This document shows, in pieces, positions 22,590 to 29,789 of a stretch of 64,000 bases of DNA. The position numbers and the translations under genes were made by a program. The notes below the pieces were generated by a model. It was given only the letters and a program-made list of their open reading frames with translations, searched no databases and was not told the origin of the DNA. Positions within the stretch are counted from its first letter, which is position 1. Every line of letters begins with the position of its first letter. The DNA comes from Candidatus Poribacteria bacterium (GTDB lineage Bacteria; Poribacteria; WGA-4E; WGA-3G): assembly GCA_965242965.1 (NCBI GenBank), contig OZ251518.1:2560001-2624000 (forward strand). The letters are read 5' to 3'.

Positions 22590-22827
22590 CACGTAGGGCG
22601 AGGGCCCTCGCATGCCACACGCGCATGCGAGAGGGTTTCCCTCGCCAGCGTTTTGGTGCAAACCGCATCATCTTTATAGTTCAGGATCGCCTGATCCTGA
22701 CCCGTTCGGGAGCGGGTGCTCCCGAACTACAGAGGTGGGCCCGATGCGCGGCCCCCTCGCTTTTCTATCGGTAGTCGCTAGCCCCCAAGGGCGGATAAAT
22801 ACCGAAACGGAGATATGAAACACCCTC
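22590..22827. mobile_element. Partial composite REP element, inverted orientation
   Basis: Ends GGATAAATACCGAAACGGAGATATGAAACACCCTC, closely matching the reverse complement of the 5504/9429 left ends. Confidence 0.7.
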
Positions 22828-22829
22828 AA

Positions 22830-23444
22830 TTAAGAATAAAGCCGCTCCTTGACGTAGAAGACGAGTGCGGTATTCCCCACTGCCAGCACCGCGCCGACAA
22901 CCGTCTGAAGCAGCGTGTGCCGTTGCCGGTAAACCCGTGCCCACGCAATGAACGGCACGAGTAGGAAGAGCCACCCACATTGCGAATCGACGAGGACGAC
23001 AAGCACCGTAATGCATCCTGTTGCGACGCTGCTGTGGAAACTAATCTTCCACATCGGCGTAATCGCGGAGAAGACGATGCTATTCGCAATGTAGGCGACA
23101 CCTGCCCAAATGATATGACGCTCGGCATCCAGCCAATACAGGATAACTGTCCCGACACTCATGCTTGCGAGTGTGAAGCAGAGCGGTGAGAGGCGTTCTT
23201 CCTTGCTATGCAGGTGCCAGTCGCTCACCTTTGAGAGCCGGAACAGAATCCCGATCCAGAGCATCGGTAGCACGGTAACGAATATCCCTAATATGGTTAG
23301 CCACAGCAGTGTGTCGCGCGAGGTAACGGCGTATTTTTCCACCACCACCACGGTTGTCGCAATCAGCACGAAAAAGGGACTGAAGACGAGGGAGATGCCC
23401 CATGCCATCCGGTCGCGAAATCCTGATAGAATGCTATGCGTCAT
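22830..23444 (-). CDS. PAP2-superfamily membrane protein
   Basis: KISFH and WARVYRQRHTLLQ (C2/C3-like motifs); its ATG overlaps the upstream stop (TGATG). Confidence 0.7.
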   Translation of the reverse strand: MTHSILSGFRDRMAWGISLVFSPFFVLIATTVVVVEKYAVTSRDTLLWLTILGIFVTVLPMLWIGILFRLSKVSDWHLHSKEERLSPLCFTLASMSVGTVILYWLDAERHIIWAGVAYIANSIVFSAITPMWKISFHSSVATGCITVLVVLVDSQCGWLFLLVPFIAWARVYRQRHTLLQTVVGAVLAVGNTALVFYVKERLYS

Positions 23445-24505
23445 CAATCACTCGGCGTTTCCAACGTTTGTTCAAAGAAATCGACTAAGTCGGCACCGTG
23501 CGTGCCGGGGTTGACTTCCGTATCAATTTTCACAATCTTCCCGGTTTTGTCAATAATTACGGTTAACCGATTGACGCGGCCATCTGGTGCGTCCGTTGCG
23601 CCGTAAAGGAGCGCGAGATTGCGGTTCGTATCTAACAAAAGTGGGAAGTTGAGTTGATTCTCTTCCGAAAATTTCTGATGCGATTCGGCATCATTCAGCG
23701 TAATTCCGAACACCTGTGTATCGTGTGCGGCGAGACGACTCGACTCATCACGGAGCGAGCGAACTTGCATCGTTCAGCCACGTCCAAAATCGCGCGGATA
23801 AAACGCCAGTACGACGTTCTTTTTCCCTTGGAACGCGCTCAGTTGGTGCGTTTTTCCCTCGCCATCGGTTGCGATGAAATCGGGAGCCGGTTGCCCCACT
23901 TCAACTTTCGGTAACATTGTCTTCAATATCGCGGTGACATCTTCACCGTGCGTTTTGACATTGACTTTATCATCGATGGAACGGATGTAACCCGCTTTGT
24001 CAATGATAAAGGTAACCCGCTTTGACGCGTTAAACTCTGCCATGATACCGCTATAGACGCTGCTGACTTTCGCCGTCGGATCTGCCAGCAAGGGAAAGTT
24101 TAACTTCAGCGATTCCCGAAACCGCTGATGCGTTTCAATGGTATCAAGACTCACGCCGAAAACCACAGTGCCGGTCGCTTCTATCTCGCTCAAATTTTCC
24201 CGGAGCGAGTTAACTTGGGTTGTTCAGCCCCCGGTGAAATCTTTCGGGTAAAAGGCGAGAACGACGTTCTTTTTCCCCCAGAACTCGCTGAGCGTTCGCA
24301 TCGTCCCGGTCTCATCTGCCAGCGTAAAATCGGGAGCTATCATCCCAACTTCCAGGGATGGCGATGGCTCCGTTGCCGCTAATGCCTCTGAATTTTTCAC
24401 GTCATCCTCCGCGAAAACGGGGGGAGTCCAGAGTGCCGCGGCGAGCAGGATAGCACAACAAACGGCTAACAGCTGGAAACCCTTCCTCCAAAGTTTTTGA
24501 AACAT
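23444..24505 (-). CDS. Exported tandem BCP/PrxQ-type peroxiredoxin with two selenocysteines (UGA at 24224-24226 and 23774-23776)
   Basis: Three track ORFs share one frame. Each UGA sits at the peroxidatic position (FYPKDFTGG-U-TTQ; FYPRDFGRG-U-TMQ). Signal peptide and GAGGT RBS at 24505. Confidence 0.9.
23739..23759 (-). promoter_or_regulatory. SECIS-like hairpin for the second UGA
   Basis: mRNA CUCG-CUC-cgugau-GAG-U-CGAG (bulged U), beginning 14 nt after the UGA. Confidence 0.7.
24185..24209 (-). promoter_or_regulatory. SECIS-like hairpin for the first UGA
   Basis: mRNA CUCGCUC-cgggaaaauuu-GAGCGAG, a 7-bp stem beginning 14 nt after the UGA. Confidence 0.7.
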
Positions 24506-24584
24506 TTCGGATACCTCAAAAAAATAGGTTAATTCTTGCAGTGCAAGACAAGTTTGGATTTTTACCACCATTATCTTAAAAAGA

Positions 24585-24613
24585 ATTATACCATAAATCC
24601 GTGATATTGTCAA
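24585..24613 (-). promoter_or_regulatory. Consensus sigma70 promoter of the peroxiredoxin gene
   Basis: TTGACA-N17-TATAAT on the minus strand. Confidence 0.75.
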
Positions 24614-24634
24614 AACTTTTTTTAATTCCGGCAT

Positions 24635-25230
24635 CTGAGAGCAGGATTTACAAGAGTATCACGATTCGCAAGAGAGGAGCAGGATTTACAAGATTTACAA
24701 GATTGGCAAGATGAGTCCGTAGCGCGGGGGCCTGTCCCCCGCGGTCGTTCACGTGTTCCAGTGACTGTAGTTCGGGAGCGCCCGCTCCCGAACGGGACAT
24801 GGAGAGGAGAACCCTTTTCTGGCCCGTAGCGCGGGGGCCTGTCCCCCGCGAGCGTTCGACCTGCGCGAAAACCGCACGCCAGTCAAAGCCGTTTTCCCGA
24901 CCGAGGCATGGCGAGGGACAGGCCCTCGCCCTACGGTAAACGGCACGCTTTTTTTAACCGTAGCGCGGGGGCCCTCGCCTGCCACACGCGCAGGCGAGCG
25001 GGTTTCCCCCGCGATCATACCCGTGAAAAACATCTCCTCAGAAGCTCTGCAGCGGTTTATCTCTGTAGGACAAGAGCACCTGCTCTGGATCCGTTCGGGA
25101 GCAGGCGCTCCCGAACTACAGATGTCGGCAGGTCGTGCGATCGCGGGGGACAGGCCCCCGCGATACGGGCCAGGACGAAAAAACGCGCGGGCGGCAACTT
25201 AATAGGCCACCGCCCGCGCAAGATATGAAA
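24635..25230. repeat. REP cluster plus CAGGATTTACAAGATT short repeats
   Basis: Multiple GTAG palindromes and 9-nt periodic repeats. Confidence 0.9.
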
Positions 25231-25242
25231 CAATACGCGACA

Positions 25243-28200
25243 TTACTCCCGCTGCTTGACTTCGCCAAACGTCGTCAACGAACGATTCGCCGGCGATACG
25301 GGACCCGGTAAGTAACGCGTCCGCAACACCTCCGGCCGACCACCTAACGAAACCTCCTCGATCTGGTAATAATACTCGACCCCAGGTTTCGCAGAGGTAT
25401 CCGTGAACGTGTAAGTTTGACGTTCGCCTGTCGTGCCGGCACCGGCGATGAGAACAGGATTCAAAAGCGTGAAACCACTCTCGCGTTTCAGGCTGCGACG
25501 CAGATTGAAACCGGCATTGTCGACTTCAGACTCGGTTGTCCATGTGACCACAACGGGACCGGCATCGGTACGCGTGAGGGTGAAACTTGACAATTCCACG
25601 GGCAAGGCACCGCCTTGACGATACCCCGGTGTGCCGATGTCCTCGGCATGGCCGTAGTGCAACGATTCAACTTTGAATTTGTTGAAATGCGCCGCTAATG
25701 CCCAATTGGACTTCAACATCCCATCGCGTGCCACCGCGCCCTTATCGTAACGGCGGACGACCGAACTGCGCGCGCCATCCCGACGATTCGTGGGCCACAC
25801 CCAGACCGGCGCGTCATCGGTGCGACGATTGTCATCGATGTTGCCTACCTCGTCTATCTTCGTGCCGTTTCTGTCGGACAACTTCAGATAGAATCCCTCG
25901 CCGCTCAAGAAGGTATCGCGCGCGGTTTTGATGCGCAGATTTTTCTCGTGCAATTCGAGGAGATTGTAGACGCGATCTGCAGGGAAGACCTCTGCCGAGG
26001 AAGCGCGGGCATCGCCTGCGACAATCAAGAGGGTCTGATTCGGTTGAATCACTTTCTCTTGCAGCGTCAACGTGACGATAGGTCTGCCGACCAAGTCTCC
26101 CGAATTCCGATTCTGGATCTCCAACTGCCACCGATTCAGATTCAACGCCTCGGTTTTGGATTTGTTATACAACTCGATCCACTGCGGCAGGGTGCCACCC
26201 TCAGAATCAAACATGATTTCGCTGATAGTCACCGCACCTTTCGGCGTAGATGCCTCCGTTTTGACAGCACCATTCGGATAGCCCGGCGTGCCGGCAGTGG
26301 CGGCAGACTTGGAGACCTGCCTGTCATAGCCGATACCGGTAAATGCAGCTTCCGCCCAGGCATCTCGATGATACCCAATGAGATCCGCCTTCGCGCGCTG
26401 CCAGACTTTGCCGGAACTCAGCGCGTCTTCGGTGGCATCGCCGGGAGCCTCAAGCACCTGCAGGGGCCAGACATGCGTATCATAATCGCCTGTCTCGTCA
26501 CGGACAAATGCATCCGTATCACTGCCGCCGCCCCCGGCGACATCGATGAACGCCTCATCCAAACCCAGTTTCTCCTTTGCATTGCGGAGAATCAATAGGA
26601 ATTTGCCATCATCGGGCAGTGAGAGCCCTGCATCCACTAAAGAGGCATGCGATAACCCCTTATTTTCTCCGCCTGCGAGTGGTGTTTTGTCCGAAGGCAT
26701 GTTGGTAATGAGCAACAAACCGTTCGCCGGCACACTCACATCTGGGAAAACGATGAGGGACGTATCCTCTTTCTTGCCATCGGCGACAACAGATAACTCC
26801 CAGTCTTTCAGAGAGACATCTGAACCGCTGACATTGCGGAATTCTAGCCAGTCGTTTGTTGCATCACTGCCATTGCCGAGTTCGTTGAAGACGATGGGAG
26901 AACGCGGCACAGCCGATGCAACCGCCTTTGAGACAGTGTCATCCTGCGGAATGTAAACCACCGGGGTCACCGCCACATCAAACGTTCTCGTCGGCTCAGT
27001 GGACGAATCCGGGACAGGCGCAGGCTGACCTGCAGCCATCGCCGGATCAGCGGTACCACGACGCTCAAGTCCTGACGAAGACATCAACGTCGTCTCACGC
27101 GGAACAGCCAAACTGTTGATACTGGCGATATCCACGCTCACCGATGCTGCCGGCGGGTCGGTCGCTTGCAAAACATACGCAAACGGCACAATCGTTGAAC
27201 CCGAACGCTCCTCGCCTTTCTGCCACACGGCATGCCGGGCATTCGCGGCCTCTCGCGCGCCGAGATAGATTGTCACATACGGCGGATCTTCGCCTTCATA
27301 AGTCAATCCGTCCTGCGCAAACGGCACCTCAACGGTGATCTCGCTACCCGCAAGATACGCACCGCCTTCGGGTTCAACAACCTTAATCTCATCCGCAACT
27401 ACCTGCACCGTGTCTACCGGCACCGTGACAGTGTTCGATGCCAAATTGCCGAGCGGGTCAGAATAGTCGGCAAGCACCGTATCGGCGGGCACCTGGAACG
27501 TCATCTCCCCTTTAAAGCCGAGCGGGGGCACCACCGTCACCGGATACCGCAACCACGCATCCACCGCCTCGGGACGGTTCACCGTCACCGTGCTATCCCC
27601 AACATCTGCAGACAGCGCAGTTTGAAGTGCCGTGAACAGCTCTTCGTTCGCCAAATCATGAGACGCTGCGGTTTTCACATGCCCGGCTGCAGTGTAGTCC
27701 TCCTGGAACCGCAATGCCAACGTAAACGTCCCGGTTTGTGTCCCCGACGGCACGTCGACTATCTCTGTCATCGCGGCGACAGAGTCCTTCACTACCTCCG
27801 GATAGGCGATAGTGCCCTTGGCGGTAGTATCATACGTGGGCGGAAAGTAGTGAGGAAACTCTGTCCCCGGCTGCTTATAAAAACCCTCCGAGACAGTATA
27901 GTGCCGTACGCGACCACCTGATTCGGGTAGACCACCGAGGGCGAGGGTCGCCAACCCGTTATCAATCACTGGGAGGTAGTCAAGAAAACCGTCGCTGTTT
28001 CTGTCAAGGTCTGTCTTTTTGATTCGGTAATTCTGCCCGCCGCGTTTGTATACCCCACGTAACATAGGGTTACCCGCCTGCGCAGCCTCCGAAGCACTAT
28101 AGGCCAACCTGTGGCTACGATACTCCGTATTCTTGGGGGCGGTGCTCTCTGGGTAGGGGATGTAACCATTGTCTCCTGCACCCTCTATAAACCCAGACAC

Positions 28201-29789
28201 GTCCATAAACTCTGCCCATCGCTTCCCCAAGAGATCGGTATTAGCACCAAATGGCACGCCGAATCCAAACTCCCCAGAGTGTAGCCCTAGGATTTGATCG
28301 TATGTGTAACCGTAGGGGTAGTCTGTGAAGAACGCTAACTCAGCGTATTCGTAATTAGTACCGACAAGCGGACGGTATGGGACATTGAACGGGGCCACGG
28401 TATTGTCCTTCCTGGCCAACCACCCGCCCGGCAACAAGCCATTCAATGCATCTGCATTGGCCTTTGTCACCGTAAATTGGTAGACGATGGTATGGTAACC
28501 ATCCACACCGGCATGCCCCCAATCCGTAGCGGTAGCCGCAGAGTCGGCATTGAAGTGGTTTACGCGGCCATCCTGTGTCATCCGTTCCAGTGGATAATTG
28601 GGATTCAGTCTCCCGACATCCTTAATGCCCACGGCTGCAATTATCGTCCCGCCGGAGGCATCCCGGAAGAAATTGCGCGCCCAGATAGTGCCTGAATCGG
28701 GCCCCTTTTGACCGGACTTGAACCATAATGGCAAATCATTCACCGTCCACGGGACGGTACGGCGACCGGAGACGGGATTGAGTGGGTGGCCATCCAAGAG
28801 TGGCGGAAGCTGTTTAGGCTTTAGAGGCGGCGCAACATTACTCGCCGGATCATCACCAGGCGTAGGATTTATGAATTCCGTTACCGTTTCATAGTACCGA
28901 AGTTTGACGTTGATGGCAATGGCGACGATATCCCCGGGGACTACCCACGTATTTTCCGAGTCGGTGACAAGCCCCGTGTTGCCGGGTTTGTTCGGATCTT
29001 CTAGTAGGCCGCCGCTCATCGGATCGCTGGTACCCCCACCGGGATCGATATTAACCCAGAAGTAGGTATCCGCCTCGCTTGCCAGTTGAGTTTCGCCATC
29101 AATGAGCTTCTGATAGTCCTTCCAGAAGGATGGGAACAGCCGCGCGCGCCTGCTTTCAAAACCGGGCGGCGTAACAACATAATTCGTGTCAGTGCCTTTG
29201 TTATTGTGAAAATAGGTACCGACCTGCAGCTCTGCCATCGGCGTTTTCTTCGGATTTTTATAGACCCGTATCCACTGAATCTCAAAATAATCCGGCGGGC
29301 AAGCTGTCAACCCGCCACCAAAGAAGGCATCAATACCCATAGTATGGCGGTTGGGGCCGCCGTGTGTCGAATTCGCCGGCAGGTTAAACGTTGTCGTATG
29401 CAAGGTATGGACTGGCAAGGGCTGGCCCTGCCAATCCGCAGTGATGCTATCACTGCCATCAGAAGCGACATCGCCTGCCGTGTATGTGTCGTGGCTCTCT
29501 CCCGGCGGTGCAAGCACCGTCAGCACACCGAATGTGAGCAGTAGGCAGCCTATCAAAACGGGATGGATGCGCGCGGCGGACCGCGGGTGTCCCCCGTCCT
29601 TCTGCGCCTTCCTGCTAAGAACTGCAGGATTTAACGGTTTGTGAAGGGGGGGGGGTCAATTGGATGGAACGCGTCACCGGCGGGCGCATGCGCGCGGAAT
29701 CTTTGCAGCGGGTGCTGCAATAACGCGGTGACGGTAGGTTTCAGGCGGACAGCAATGCCCGCGAAAATGAGAGAGAATAGGATTCTCAT
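25243..29789 (-). CDS. Large secreted lamin-tail-domain (LTD) protein; leader frameshifted at a C10 tract (29646-29655)
   Basis: Two LTD modules (IVFNELGN..DWLEFRN; VTISEIMF..QWIELYN), LPVELSSF Ig/Fn3-like C-terminal domain, LTTFGEVK tail. The main ORF is 25243-29556; the RBS-bearing ATG at 29789 is one base out of frame. Confidence 0.8.

Follow-up and report, generated by a model that had tools for sequence, protein, structure and literature searches.

We analyzed a 64,000-nucleotide stretch of DNA (the window, C1:2560001-2624000) from the genome of a sponge-associated Candidatus Poribacteria bacterium (5.7 Mb in two contigs) and found on its minus strand, at 23444..24505, what is very probably a single intact selenoprotein gene. 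It would code for a homologue of peroxiredoxins in tandem, with two selenocysteine (Sec, U) residues, one in each of its two domains. Judging from sequence data, we give this reading a probability of about 0.88. The case rests on the presence of the Sec machinery in the genome, on the conservation of both in-frame TGA codons throughout one order of the phylum, and on a synonymous constraint that covers the hairpins behind both codons. An earlier note on this DNA had proposed a two-Sec reading of the gene, and these data bear it out.

A split gene for a tandem peroxiredoxin

Three open reading frames (ORFs) on the minus strand, 24224..24634, 23774..24193, and 23444..23770, lie in one frame that is interrupted solely by the TGA codons at 24226-24224 and 23776-23774. 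With TGA translated as U, 24505..23444 gives 353 residues, including U94 and U244. Both the ORF list and the translation agree with what the earlier note had described, namely, three fragments split by single TGA codons that are joined by read-through into 353 amino acids, with a signal-peptide-like N terminus and two domains of the BCP/PrxQ type. The features of the gene are as follows.

23444..24505, minus strand: tandem Sec-peroxiredoxin coding sequence (CDS), 353 codons plus the stop TGA at 23446-23444 (read-through translation, Pfam, orthologues)
24410..24505, minus strand: signal-peptide-like residues 1 to 32, with K4, R7, K8, a hydrophobic stretch at 11 to 26, and VFA before EDD (by eye)
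23915..24349, minus strand: domain 1, residues ca. 53 to 197, BCP/PrxQ type, motif PKDFTGGU, invariant Arg163 (Pfam 53-176, Foldseek, alignment)
24224..24226, minus strand: UGA 1, read as Sec94, peroxidatic position of domain 1 (translation, orthologues, contigs of four runs)
24185..24209, minus strand: SECIS-like (selenocysteine insertion sequence-like) hairpin 1, CUCGCUC / 11-nt loop CGGGAAAAUUU / GAGCGAG (folding, orthologue pairing, codon freezing)
23462..23899, minus strand: domain 2, residues ca. 203 to 348, BCP/PrxQ type, motif PRDFGRGU with Gly for Thr, invariant Arg313 (Pfam, alignment)
23774..23776, minus strand: UGA 2, read as Sec244, peroxidatic position of domain 2 (translation, orthologues, contigs of four runs)
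23759..23761, minus strand: Arg249 (CGC), five residues after U in domain 2, where 64 of 66 orthologues have a TGC or TGT Cys codon (orthologues, contigs of four runs)
23738..23760, minus strand: SECIS-like hairpin 2, (G)CUCGCUC / loop CGUGAU / GAG-U-CGAG(U) (orthologue pairing, codon freezing)

Two stretches of the read-through protein matched the Pfam family AhpC-TSA (1.2e-68 over both). The best NCBIfam family was that of the thioredoxin-dependent thiol peroxidase (E. coli Bcp), NF006960, with 175.5 bits summed over the two stretches and a cut-off of 140. The PrxU model NF040737, whose cut-off is 270, gave a score of 107.2 bits, which means that the protein is no equivalog of PrxU. An AlphaFold2 model built with 29 orthologues (mean predicted local distance difference test [pLDDT], 86.7; predicted template modeling score [pTM], 0.81) consisted of an N-terminal helix, a linker, and two thioredoxin-fold domains. 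The best solved matches found by Foldseek were Sulfolobus Bcp1 (3drn; template modeling [TM] score of 0.89 on the target, E = 3.5e-14), M. tuberculosis BcpB (5epf) and AhpE (1xvw), and Xanthomonas PrxQ (5ima). Because the active-site strings are FYPKDFTGGU in domain 1 and FYPRDFGRGU in domain 2, both TGA codons fall at the place of the peroxidatic Cys of the PxxxTxxC motif, and the Cys-type homologues P0020 to P0022 have Cys there. R163 and R313, which from their place before the TF/TV-IID strand we take to be the catalytic Arg of each domain, were invariant in 29 aligned sequences.

Conservation of the two TGA codons

We searched related genomes in all six frames without halting at stop codons. 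Of 41 such genomes, 37 gave a full-length match that had exactly two TGA codons; three others, which belong to one genus, gave a form of one domain and one TGA, and the last gave no close match. Phylum-wide, 154 of 176 genomes gave a match at an E value of <=1e-40. By family of a single order, the matches came from 107 of 111 genomes in the family of this genome (f1), 11/11 in f2, 29/29 in f3, and 6/7 in f4; the other families of the phylum, f5 to f11, gave 0/17. Protein identity among the listed matches was 49 to 86%, and 146 of the 150 listed had two in-frame TGA codons (7 of these with one further TAA or TAG inside the span). One other had three TGA codons and the last three had one, two of these looking cut (they start at query residue 94 or 117). 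In all 40 loci that were fetched, the TGA codons stood at the same place in the motif, as a check proposed by the earlier note had called for. One genome also has a second tandem copy (G102:C108:3378-4316), 49% identical and with one TGA only, in which Cys may occupy one of the sites.

Contigs from four sequencing runs, belonging to four studies, cover both TGA codons and the Arg249 codon, and no other letter was seen there (the best-matching run may be the genome's own source sample). Thus, TGC or TGT at these codons, which the earlier note had named as an observation that would speak against it, did not appear. We regard sequencing error and pseudogene decay as excluded.

The genome has selA (518 bits), selD, and a selB winged-helix domain in a 653-residue frame that directly adjoins a tRNA-Sec gene (selC; anticodon TCA), which completes the machinery that the earlier note had proposed to look for. 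The selD gene itself carries one in-frame TGA (C1:58854-59813, ...VKCAGU ASKLAPG...). That the two TGA codons are something other than Sec codons, be it in a decaying pseudogene, in three small genes, or through a reading of UGA as Trp, Gly, or Cys, is highly improbable. Gene callers do yield three ORFs, and some database entries have W at both sites. However, decay would not keep two TGA codons at the same catalytic sites of an otherwise open frame in matches as distant as 49% identity (146 of the 150 listed), and an enzyme with W or G at the peroxidatic place would be dead. Furthermore, UGA is not a general sense codon in this genome, since the peroxiredoxin gene's own stop is TGA and in-frame stops are absent from selA, selB, and several Cys-type BCP paralogues. 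The full Sec machinery and the hairpins also stand against all of these possibilities.

Hairpins behind both UGA codons

The earlier note had also claimed that each TGA is followed after 14 nt by a hairpin with the same 5' arm, the second one with a bulged U; this was confirmed. The common arm is CUCGCUC, followed by CG. In hairpin 1, seven perfect pairs between 24209-24203 and 24191-24185 enclose the loop at 24202-24192. The core of hairpin 2 pairs 23759-23753 with 23746-23739 around a 6-nt loop (23752-23747), with one bulge on the 3' side (U, or C in an alternative register). The criteria of bSECISearch are a stem-loop, a G in the apical loop, and a loop start roughly 16 to 37 nt from the UGA. 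Both loops, CGGGAAAAUUU and CGUGAU, start 21 nt after the UGA and agree with these criteria.

The comparative data, and not the folding energy, lift the hairpins above chance. Among 38 distinct sequences, 96.4% of the cells of hairpin 2 were paired, compared with 26 to 40% when the partner was slid by 1 to 3 columns. Pair 18-38 changes from C-G to U-A in two sequences, pair 21-35 occurs in the states G-C, A-U, and G-U, and one pair alternates between G-U and G-C. For hairpin 1, in 24 sequences of family f1, the values were 98.8% of cells paired versus 18 to 56% when slid. Its outer pair is C-G in 16 sequences, G-C in 6, and unpaired in 2, a score reached by 0 of 500 shuffles; the swap probably goes back to a single inherited event. 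The remaining three families have, in domain 1, a hairpin of the domain 2 type (CUC-G-CUC / CGGGAU / GAG-UU-GAG), for which RNAalifold gave two compensated pairs. In family f1, the 3' arm of hairpin 1 sits three bases farther downstream, which lengthens the loop and makes the stem perfect. In the orthologue L037 (G025:C38:129668-131564), read by eye, the domain 1 hairpin is shifted by one base and SLR becomes STR, with the pairing kept.

The strongest of the RNA-level tests was independent of any drawn structure. Over 36 genes, the normalized codon entropy of conserved residues averaged 0.79 over 171 codons elsewhere in the gene but 0.20 over the 14 codons scored between +5 and +13 behind the UGA codons (Mann-Whitney p = 1e-9, a value that is overstated, the sequences being related). 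The two 9-codon windows of lowest entropy in the entire gene lie just after UGA 2 and UGA 1, and the Leu codon under the hairpins is CUC in 36/36 genes. Given that synonymous sites are frozen, selection on the protein is not an adequate explanation for these codons.

The selD gene and two further Prx-like genes of this genome with a UxxC motif have hairpins 13 to 15 nt after their UGA codons with the same apex, CUC / GG-first loop / GAG, which would fit a single SelB recognizing all four genes. The selD hairpin is GCUCC/GGG/GGAGC, 13 nt after the TGA. The two AhpC/TSA-like genes, C1:1196646-1197050 (plus strand) and C1:1013000-1013410 (minus strand), each have one in-frame TGA in a T/W-U-x-F-C motif, followed at a distance of 15 nt by a CUC/GGN/GAG hairpin; the N terminus is hydrophobic in C1:1196646-1197050 at least. 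Related genomes contain many redoxin genes with one TGA, up to about ten per genome, and the lineage seems to be rich in thioredoxin-fold selenoproteins.

Probable export of the protein

As the earlier note had stated, the N terminus resembles a signal peptide, with the basic residues K4, R7, and K8 ahead of the hydrophobic stretch and VFA at its end, and most orthologues have similar N termini. In the model, residues 4 to 24 form a helix, followed by a low-confidence linker at 20 to 46. By the -3/-1 rule, VFA and ends of the ALA, ASG, or LAE type fit signal peptidase I sites. From these sequence features, the protein is likely to be exported, with cleavage probably after VFA32. We also considered a lipoprotein signal at residues 13 to 16 (LAVC) and rejected it, on the grounds that Val at -1 is unfit for a lipobox and that the Cys is not conserved (G001 has C-W there).

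Alternatively, the hydrophobic segment might remain uncleaved and tether the enzyme to the inner membrane on the periplasmic side, next to the PAP2-like membrane protein that the following gene encodes. In favor of this, the segment is long and modeled as a helix, a clear small-x-small site is missing in several orthologues, and in family f1 the next gene always codes for an integral membrane protein, its start overlapping the peroxiredoxin stop. On the other hand, VFA precedes an acidic stretch here, and the ends in many orthologues are of the ALA, ASG, or LAE type, so we regard an anchored enzyme as unlikely.

Points against an exported two-Sec peroxidase

Several observations weigh against the reading of this gene as one for an exported, two-Sec tandem peroxidase. 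Folding energy taken by itself is unremarkable: within the respective 60-nt stretches, the fold of minimum energy was hairpin 1 in the first (z = -1.1 versus shuffles) but not hairpin 2 in the second (z = +0.25). A scan of 23000-25300 with Rfam at E <= 10 gave no SECIS family, only four weak unrelated matches. The covariation is thin, with changes on both sides in two of the eight pairs of hairpin 2 and in one of the seven of hairpin 1; for hairpin 2, the covariation score was reached by 80 of 500 shuffles and the pairing by 28 of 500. Most stem positions are invariant and hence uninformative either way, and their constancy may arise in part at the protein level, SLRD being kept also in Cys-type homologues. 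Five genomes of the order (G021, G112, G122, G125, and G088) had no match at 1e-40, and the copy of another (L041, G039:C4:42410-44306) is possibly broken, given a TAA that interrupts domain 1 behind the first hairpin. Regarding location, export was judged by eye, and the orthologue L037 seems to start with MGEVKAL..., without a hydrophobic N terminus, and is possibly cytoplasmic. Regarding function, the Thr or Ser that Cys-peroxiredoxins need is replaced by Gly in domain 2, which thus fails one defining catalytic feature. Finally, no reductant gene lies nearby, the neighbors being queA, ruvB, ruvA, yebC, a mazG-like gene, and nfi.

Active-site variation in the two domains

We compared the active sites of 66 distinct tandem genes, from which duplicates had been dropped.

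Domain 1, catalytic Thr place: Thr in 66/66
Domain 2, catalytic Thr place: Gly in 53/66, Thr in 13/66
Domain 1, residue U+5: Cys in 19/66; Gln, Asn, Arg, Glu, Ser, or Lys in 47/66
Domain 2, residue U+5: Cys in 64/66; Ser in 1; Arg in 1 (the copy of this genome only)

Thus, the hydroxyl residue of PxxxT/SxxC(U) is present in domain 1 of our protein and absent from domain 2, where the motif reads PRDFGRGU. The earlier note had pointed out this Gly; it is not a quirk of the copy studied here but occurs throughout family f1, while the other three families keep the canonical PxxxTxxU. Either selenium makes the hydroxyl dispensable or domain 2 has another role.

Five residues after the peroxidatic Cys is the place of the resolving Cys in the common type of BCP, although 1-Cys BCPs exist. 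In this genome, position U+5 is taken by Asn99 (domain 1) and Arg249 (domain 2), so there is no BCP resolving Cys; given the 1-Cys forms, this does not rule the protein out of the subfamily. The only Cys residues of the chain, C16 and C17, are in the N-terminal hydrophobic segment, and a chain cut near residue 32 has none. The mature protein would be free of Cys because it has Arg at U+5 of domain 2, unlike the other orthologues. The claim of the earlier note that the mature protein contains no Cys therefore stands for this sequence but not as a general trait, 64 of the 66 orthologues having a Cys at U+5.

Proposed mechanism

The gene would be cotranscribed with the small PAP2-like membrane-protein gene from a promoter of its own. 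SelB with Sec-tRNA(Sec) would bind the hairpin 14 nt after each UGA and insert Sec at positions 94 and 244. The N-terminal ca. 32 residues would serve as a Sec-type signal peptide, leaving a mature protein of ca. 320 residues to act outside the cytoplasm. Each half is, according to profile and fold matches, a BCP/PrxQ-type domain, and the tree described below traces the two halves to a duplication that predates the four families. By analogy with peroxiredoxins, the selenolate of each domain would attack a hydroperoxide and become a selenenic acid, aided by R163 or R313 and, in domain 1, by Thr91. In most orthologues, the oxidized Sec of domain 2 would then be resolved by the U+5 Cys, as in BCP. 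In this species, an outside thiol or selenol partner would be needed to reduce the selenenic acids directly, given the Arg at U+5 and the lack of Cys in either domain. This partner would probably be a thioredoxin-like envelope protein fed by a DsbD-type transporter. The genome has a single DsbD_TM gene (a 654-residue frame), and its product could supply reducing power to the envelope in the way that ScsB does for PprX.

The least certain step is the peroxidase activity of domain 2, which is without the hydroxyl residue that Cys-peroxiredoxins need. From the sequences, we lean toward both domains being peroxidases. A doubtful alternative is that only domain 1 is a peroxidase and that domain 2, with PxxxGxxU and an Arg two residues before Sec, is a resolving or relay domain that takes the oxidizing equivalent from domain 1, possibly through an Se-Se or Se-S bond, and passes it to an external reductant. 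In favor of such a division of labor, the Thr place of domain 2 has Gly in 53 of 66 genes, always with Arg or Thr next but one, compared with Thr in 66 of 66 in domain 1, and U-x4-C occurs in 64 of 66 in domain 2 versus 19 of 66 in domain 1. The pTM of the whole chain also suggests a fixed domain arrangement. In addition, the hydroxyl has been reported to be indispensable in a Cys-peroxiredoxin; that Leishmania enzyme reportedly tolerated Ser at the Thr place and no residue without OH (PMC7231847). However, domain 2 of the other three families has the canonical PxxxTxxU (13/66), stand-alone descendants of domain 2 in one genus imply that the ancestral domain 2 was a complete peroxidase, and Arg313 is invariant. 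Moreover, most Sec is deprotonated at neutral pH, and a Thr that accepts the proton may then not be needed.

The earlier note had suggested that domain 2 might act as the resolving partner through an interdomain diselenide. We consider this putative bond unlikely, and the comparative data suggest another default, namely, the U+5 Cys that domain 2 itself has in 64 of 66 orthologues. For this species in particular, one can conceive of a thiol-free, two-selenium peroxidase of the oxidizing cell envelope in which the PxxxGxxU Sec of domain 2, no longer with a resolving Cys of its own, resolves the selenenic acid of domain 1 as an interdomain diselenide and an outside reductant resets both. We judge it to be quite unlikely, but if true, the family more widely would be a natural example of a peroxiredoxin site working without the "indispensable" hydroxyl because selenium replaces sulfur.

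Origin of the tandem

The two domains are identical at 70 of 142 positions. In a quick tree search over 142 columns, from which the broken copy L041 was excluded, all domain 1 sequences formed one clade (Shimodaira-Hasegawa-like approximate likelihood ratio test [SH-aLRT], 99), and the domain 2 sequences together with the single-domain forms formed another (SH-aLRT, 93). Since each clade repeats the order of the families, the duplication took place before the four families separated. The single-domain forms, found in one genus, fall within the domain 2 clade, indicating that they have lost domain 1. A database variant, P0018, has Ser for Sec in a degenerate domain 1.

Probable transcription unit and genomic surroundings

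The features around the coding sequence are as follows.

24585..24613, minus strand: sigma-70-type promoter-like site, TTGACA-17 nt-TATAAT with TG before the -10 element, ca. 80 nt upstream of the ATG (consensus match only)
24514..24517, minus strand: GAGG ribosome-binding site, 8 nt 5' of the ATG at 24505 (read from the sequence)
22830..23447, minus strand: 204-residue integral membrane protein, with its start at TTG 23447 or ATG 23444 overlapping the peroxiredoxin stop (ORF, Pfam)

The promoter-like site at 24613-24585 matches the consensus at 12 of 12 positions and was the best of five sites found (shuffle mean, 1.5). Because the far ATG at 24634 precedes this site, translation is unlikely to start there, and 24505 is the favored start. 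The start MFQ... is common to most orthologues. Given this site and a strong terminator-like hairpin (25220-25184) that ends the upstream gene, the peroxiredoxin unit seems to have its own promoter. At the other end, the stop TGA is followed immediately by a second TGA. A third Sec at this terminal TGA-TGA was considered and rejected, as no hairpin follows and other orthologues have TAA or TAG as their stop in this place.

The 204-residue protein scored 23 bits with Pfam PAP2, below the cut-off of 27.2. By tblastn, this PAP2-like gene came directly next in 61 of 61 loci of the f1 type (counts that are not independent, the loci coming partly from the same genomes). None of the 16 loci from other families had it in their flanks, which extended for only 0.5 to 0.9 kb.

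The gap of ca. 740 bases upstream of the peroxiredoxin gene is filled with GC-rich palindromic repeats (24640-25240). Copies of GCGGGGGCCTGTCCCCCGC and GTTCGGGAGCGCCCGCTCCCGAAC occur in both orientations, with inverted pairs of up to 46 nt that are 91 to 97% complementary, and the repeats look like intergenic elements of the repetitive extragenic palindromic (REP) type. Similar strings coding for SGAGAPELQ recur near 22700. Beyond the gap, Pfam recognized two stretches of lamin-tail domain (LTD, 3.6e-21) and nothing else in a 1,437-residue ORF (25243-29556, minus strand), which ends in the terminator-like hairpin at 25220-25184.

Relation to known peroxiredoxins and selenoproteins

The prototype of Sec-peroxiredoxins is PrxU of Eubacterium acidaminophilum. 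Our protein resembles the Sec-Prx TxxU family in its AhpC/TSA fold, in the UGA at the peroxidatic place of PxxxTxxU, and in the SECIS hairpin directly downstream within the CDS, but unlike that family and PrxU, it has two fused domains, two Sec residues, a signal-peptide-like N terminus, and Gly for Thr in domain 2. With BCP/PrxQ proteins (NF006960, 3drn, 5epf, and 5ima) it shares the best sequence-family and fold matches and, in 64 of 66 orthologues, a Cys at CP+5 of domain 2. It differs from them in having Sec for the peroxidatic Cys, a tandem duplication, putative export, and, in the copy of this genome, no resolving Cys. The lack of a resolving Cys and the need for an outside partner recall Mycobacterium tuberculosis AhpE (1xvw and 4x0x; TM scores of 0.83 to 0.89 on the target), although AhpE is a cytoplasmic, single-domain Cys enzyme. 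Among exported enzymes, PprX is single-domain and, unlike the Poribacteria Sec enzyme, uses Cys. PprX is described as a peroxiredoxin of the Caulobacter cell envelope that is fed by the DsbD-like transporter ScsB (PMC3322552). By analogy, an exported peroxiredoxin in Poribacteria would likewise need reducing power from across the membrane.

In a 2026 review of prokaryotic selenoproteomes, Prx (PF00578, TxxU) is listed with one Sec, only a small subset of 119 families has two or three, and the portion considered here mentions neither Poribacteria nor sponges (PMC13188914). MbdU, MduS, and the UXX-star fusions listed there also have two UGA-encoded Sec residues in one frame, each needing its own signal, but they have other folds, and none of the entries in that table is a duplicated peroxidase domain with one Sec in each copy. 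Peroxiredoxins fused to other domains, and no Prx-Prx tandem, appear in the examined text of the Global Ocean Sampling (GOS) study (PMC2398784). Poribacteria have been reported to have Sec-containing group 4 hydrogenases (PMC13582414), and sponge symbionts in general to be enriched in selA and selB (PMC5649159). In the literature, we found no description of a tandem two-Sec peroxiredoxin; supplementary lists, which may contain such sequences, were outside the search. The enzyme type is known, but its doubled, two-Sec form seems to be undescribed.

In databases, full-length proteins of this kind have W at both Sec places, i.e., the gene caller read TGA as Trp. Another 447 shorter proteins (E <= 1e-25), mostly the 139-residue piece between the two TGA codons, are named at most "peroxiredoxin," which is the fragmentation by standard annotation that the earlier note had anticipated. 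Public protein sets thus break up a gene that nearly every genome of one Poribacteria order has, leaving two or three pieces called "peroxiredoxin," or else translate it wrongly with Trp, and as a result, counts of antioxidant genes and selenoproteins for sponge symbionts are wrong.

Few bacterial proteins are known to have multiple Sec residues, and this one, a probably exported peroxidase with two, joins them. Two features deserve experiment: that one Sec site lacks the Thr and that the mature protein of this species would combine two Sec residues with a complete absence of Cys. The natural variants (Sec without the catalytic Thr, presence or absence of the resolving Cys at U+5, and one species free of Cys) could show what selenium buys a peroxiredoxin. 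For the organisms themselves, the gene points to a selenium-based peroxide defense of the cell envelope in symbionts that live inside an oxidant-producing host.

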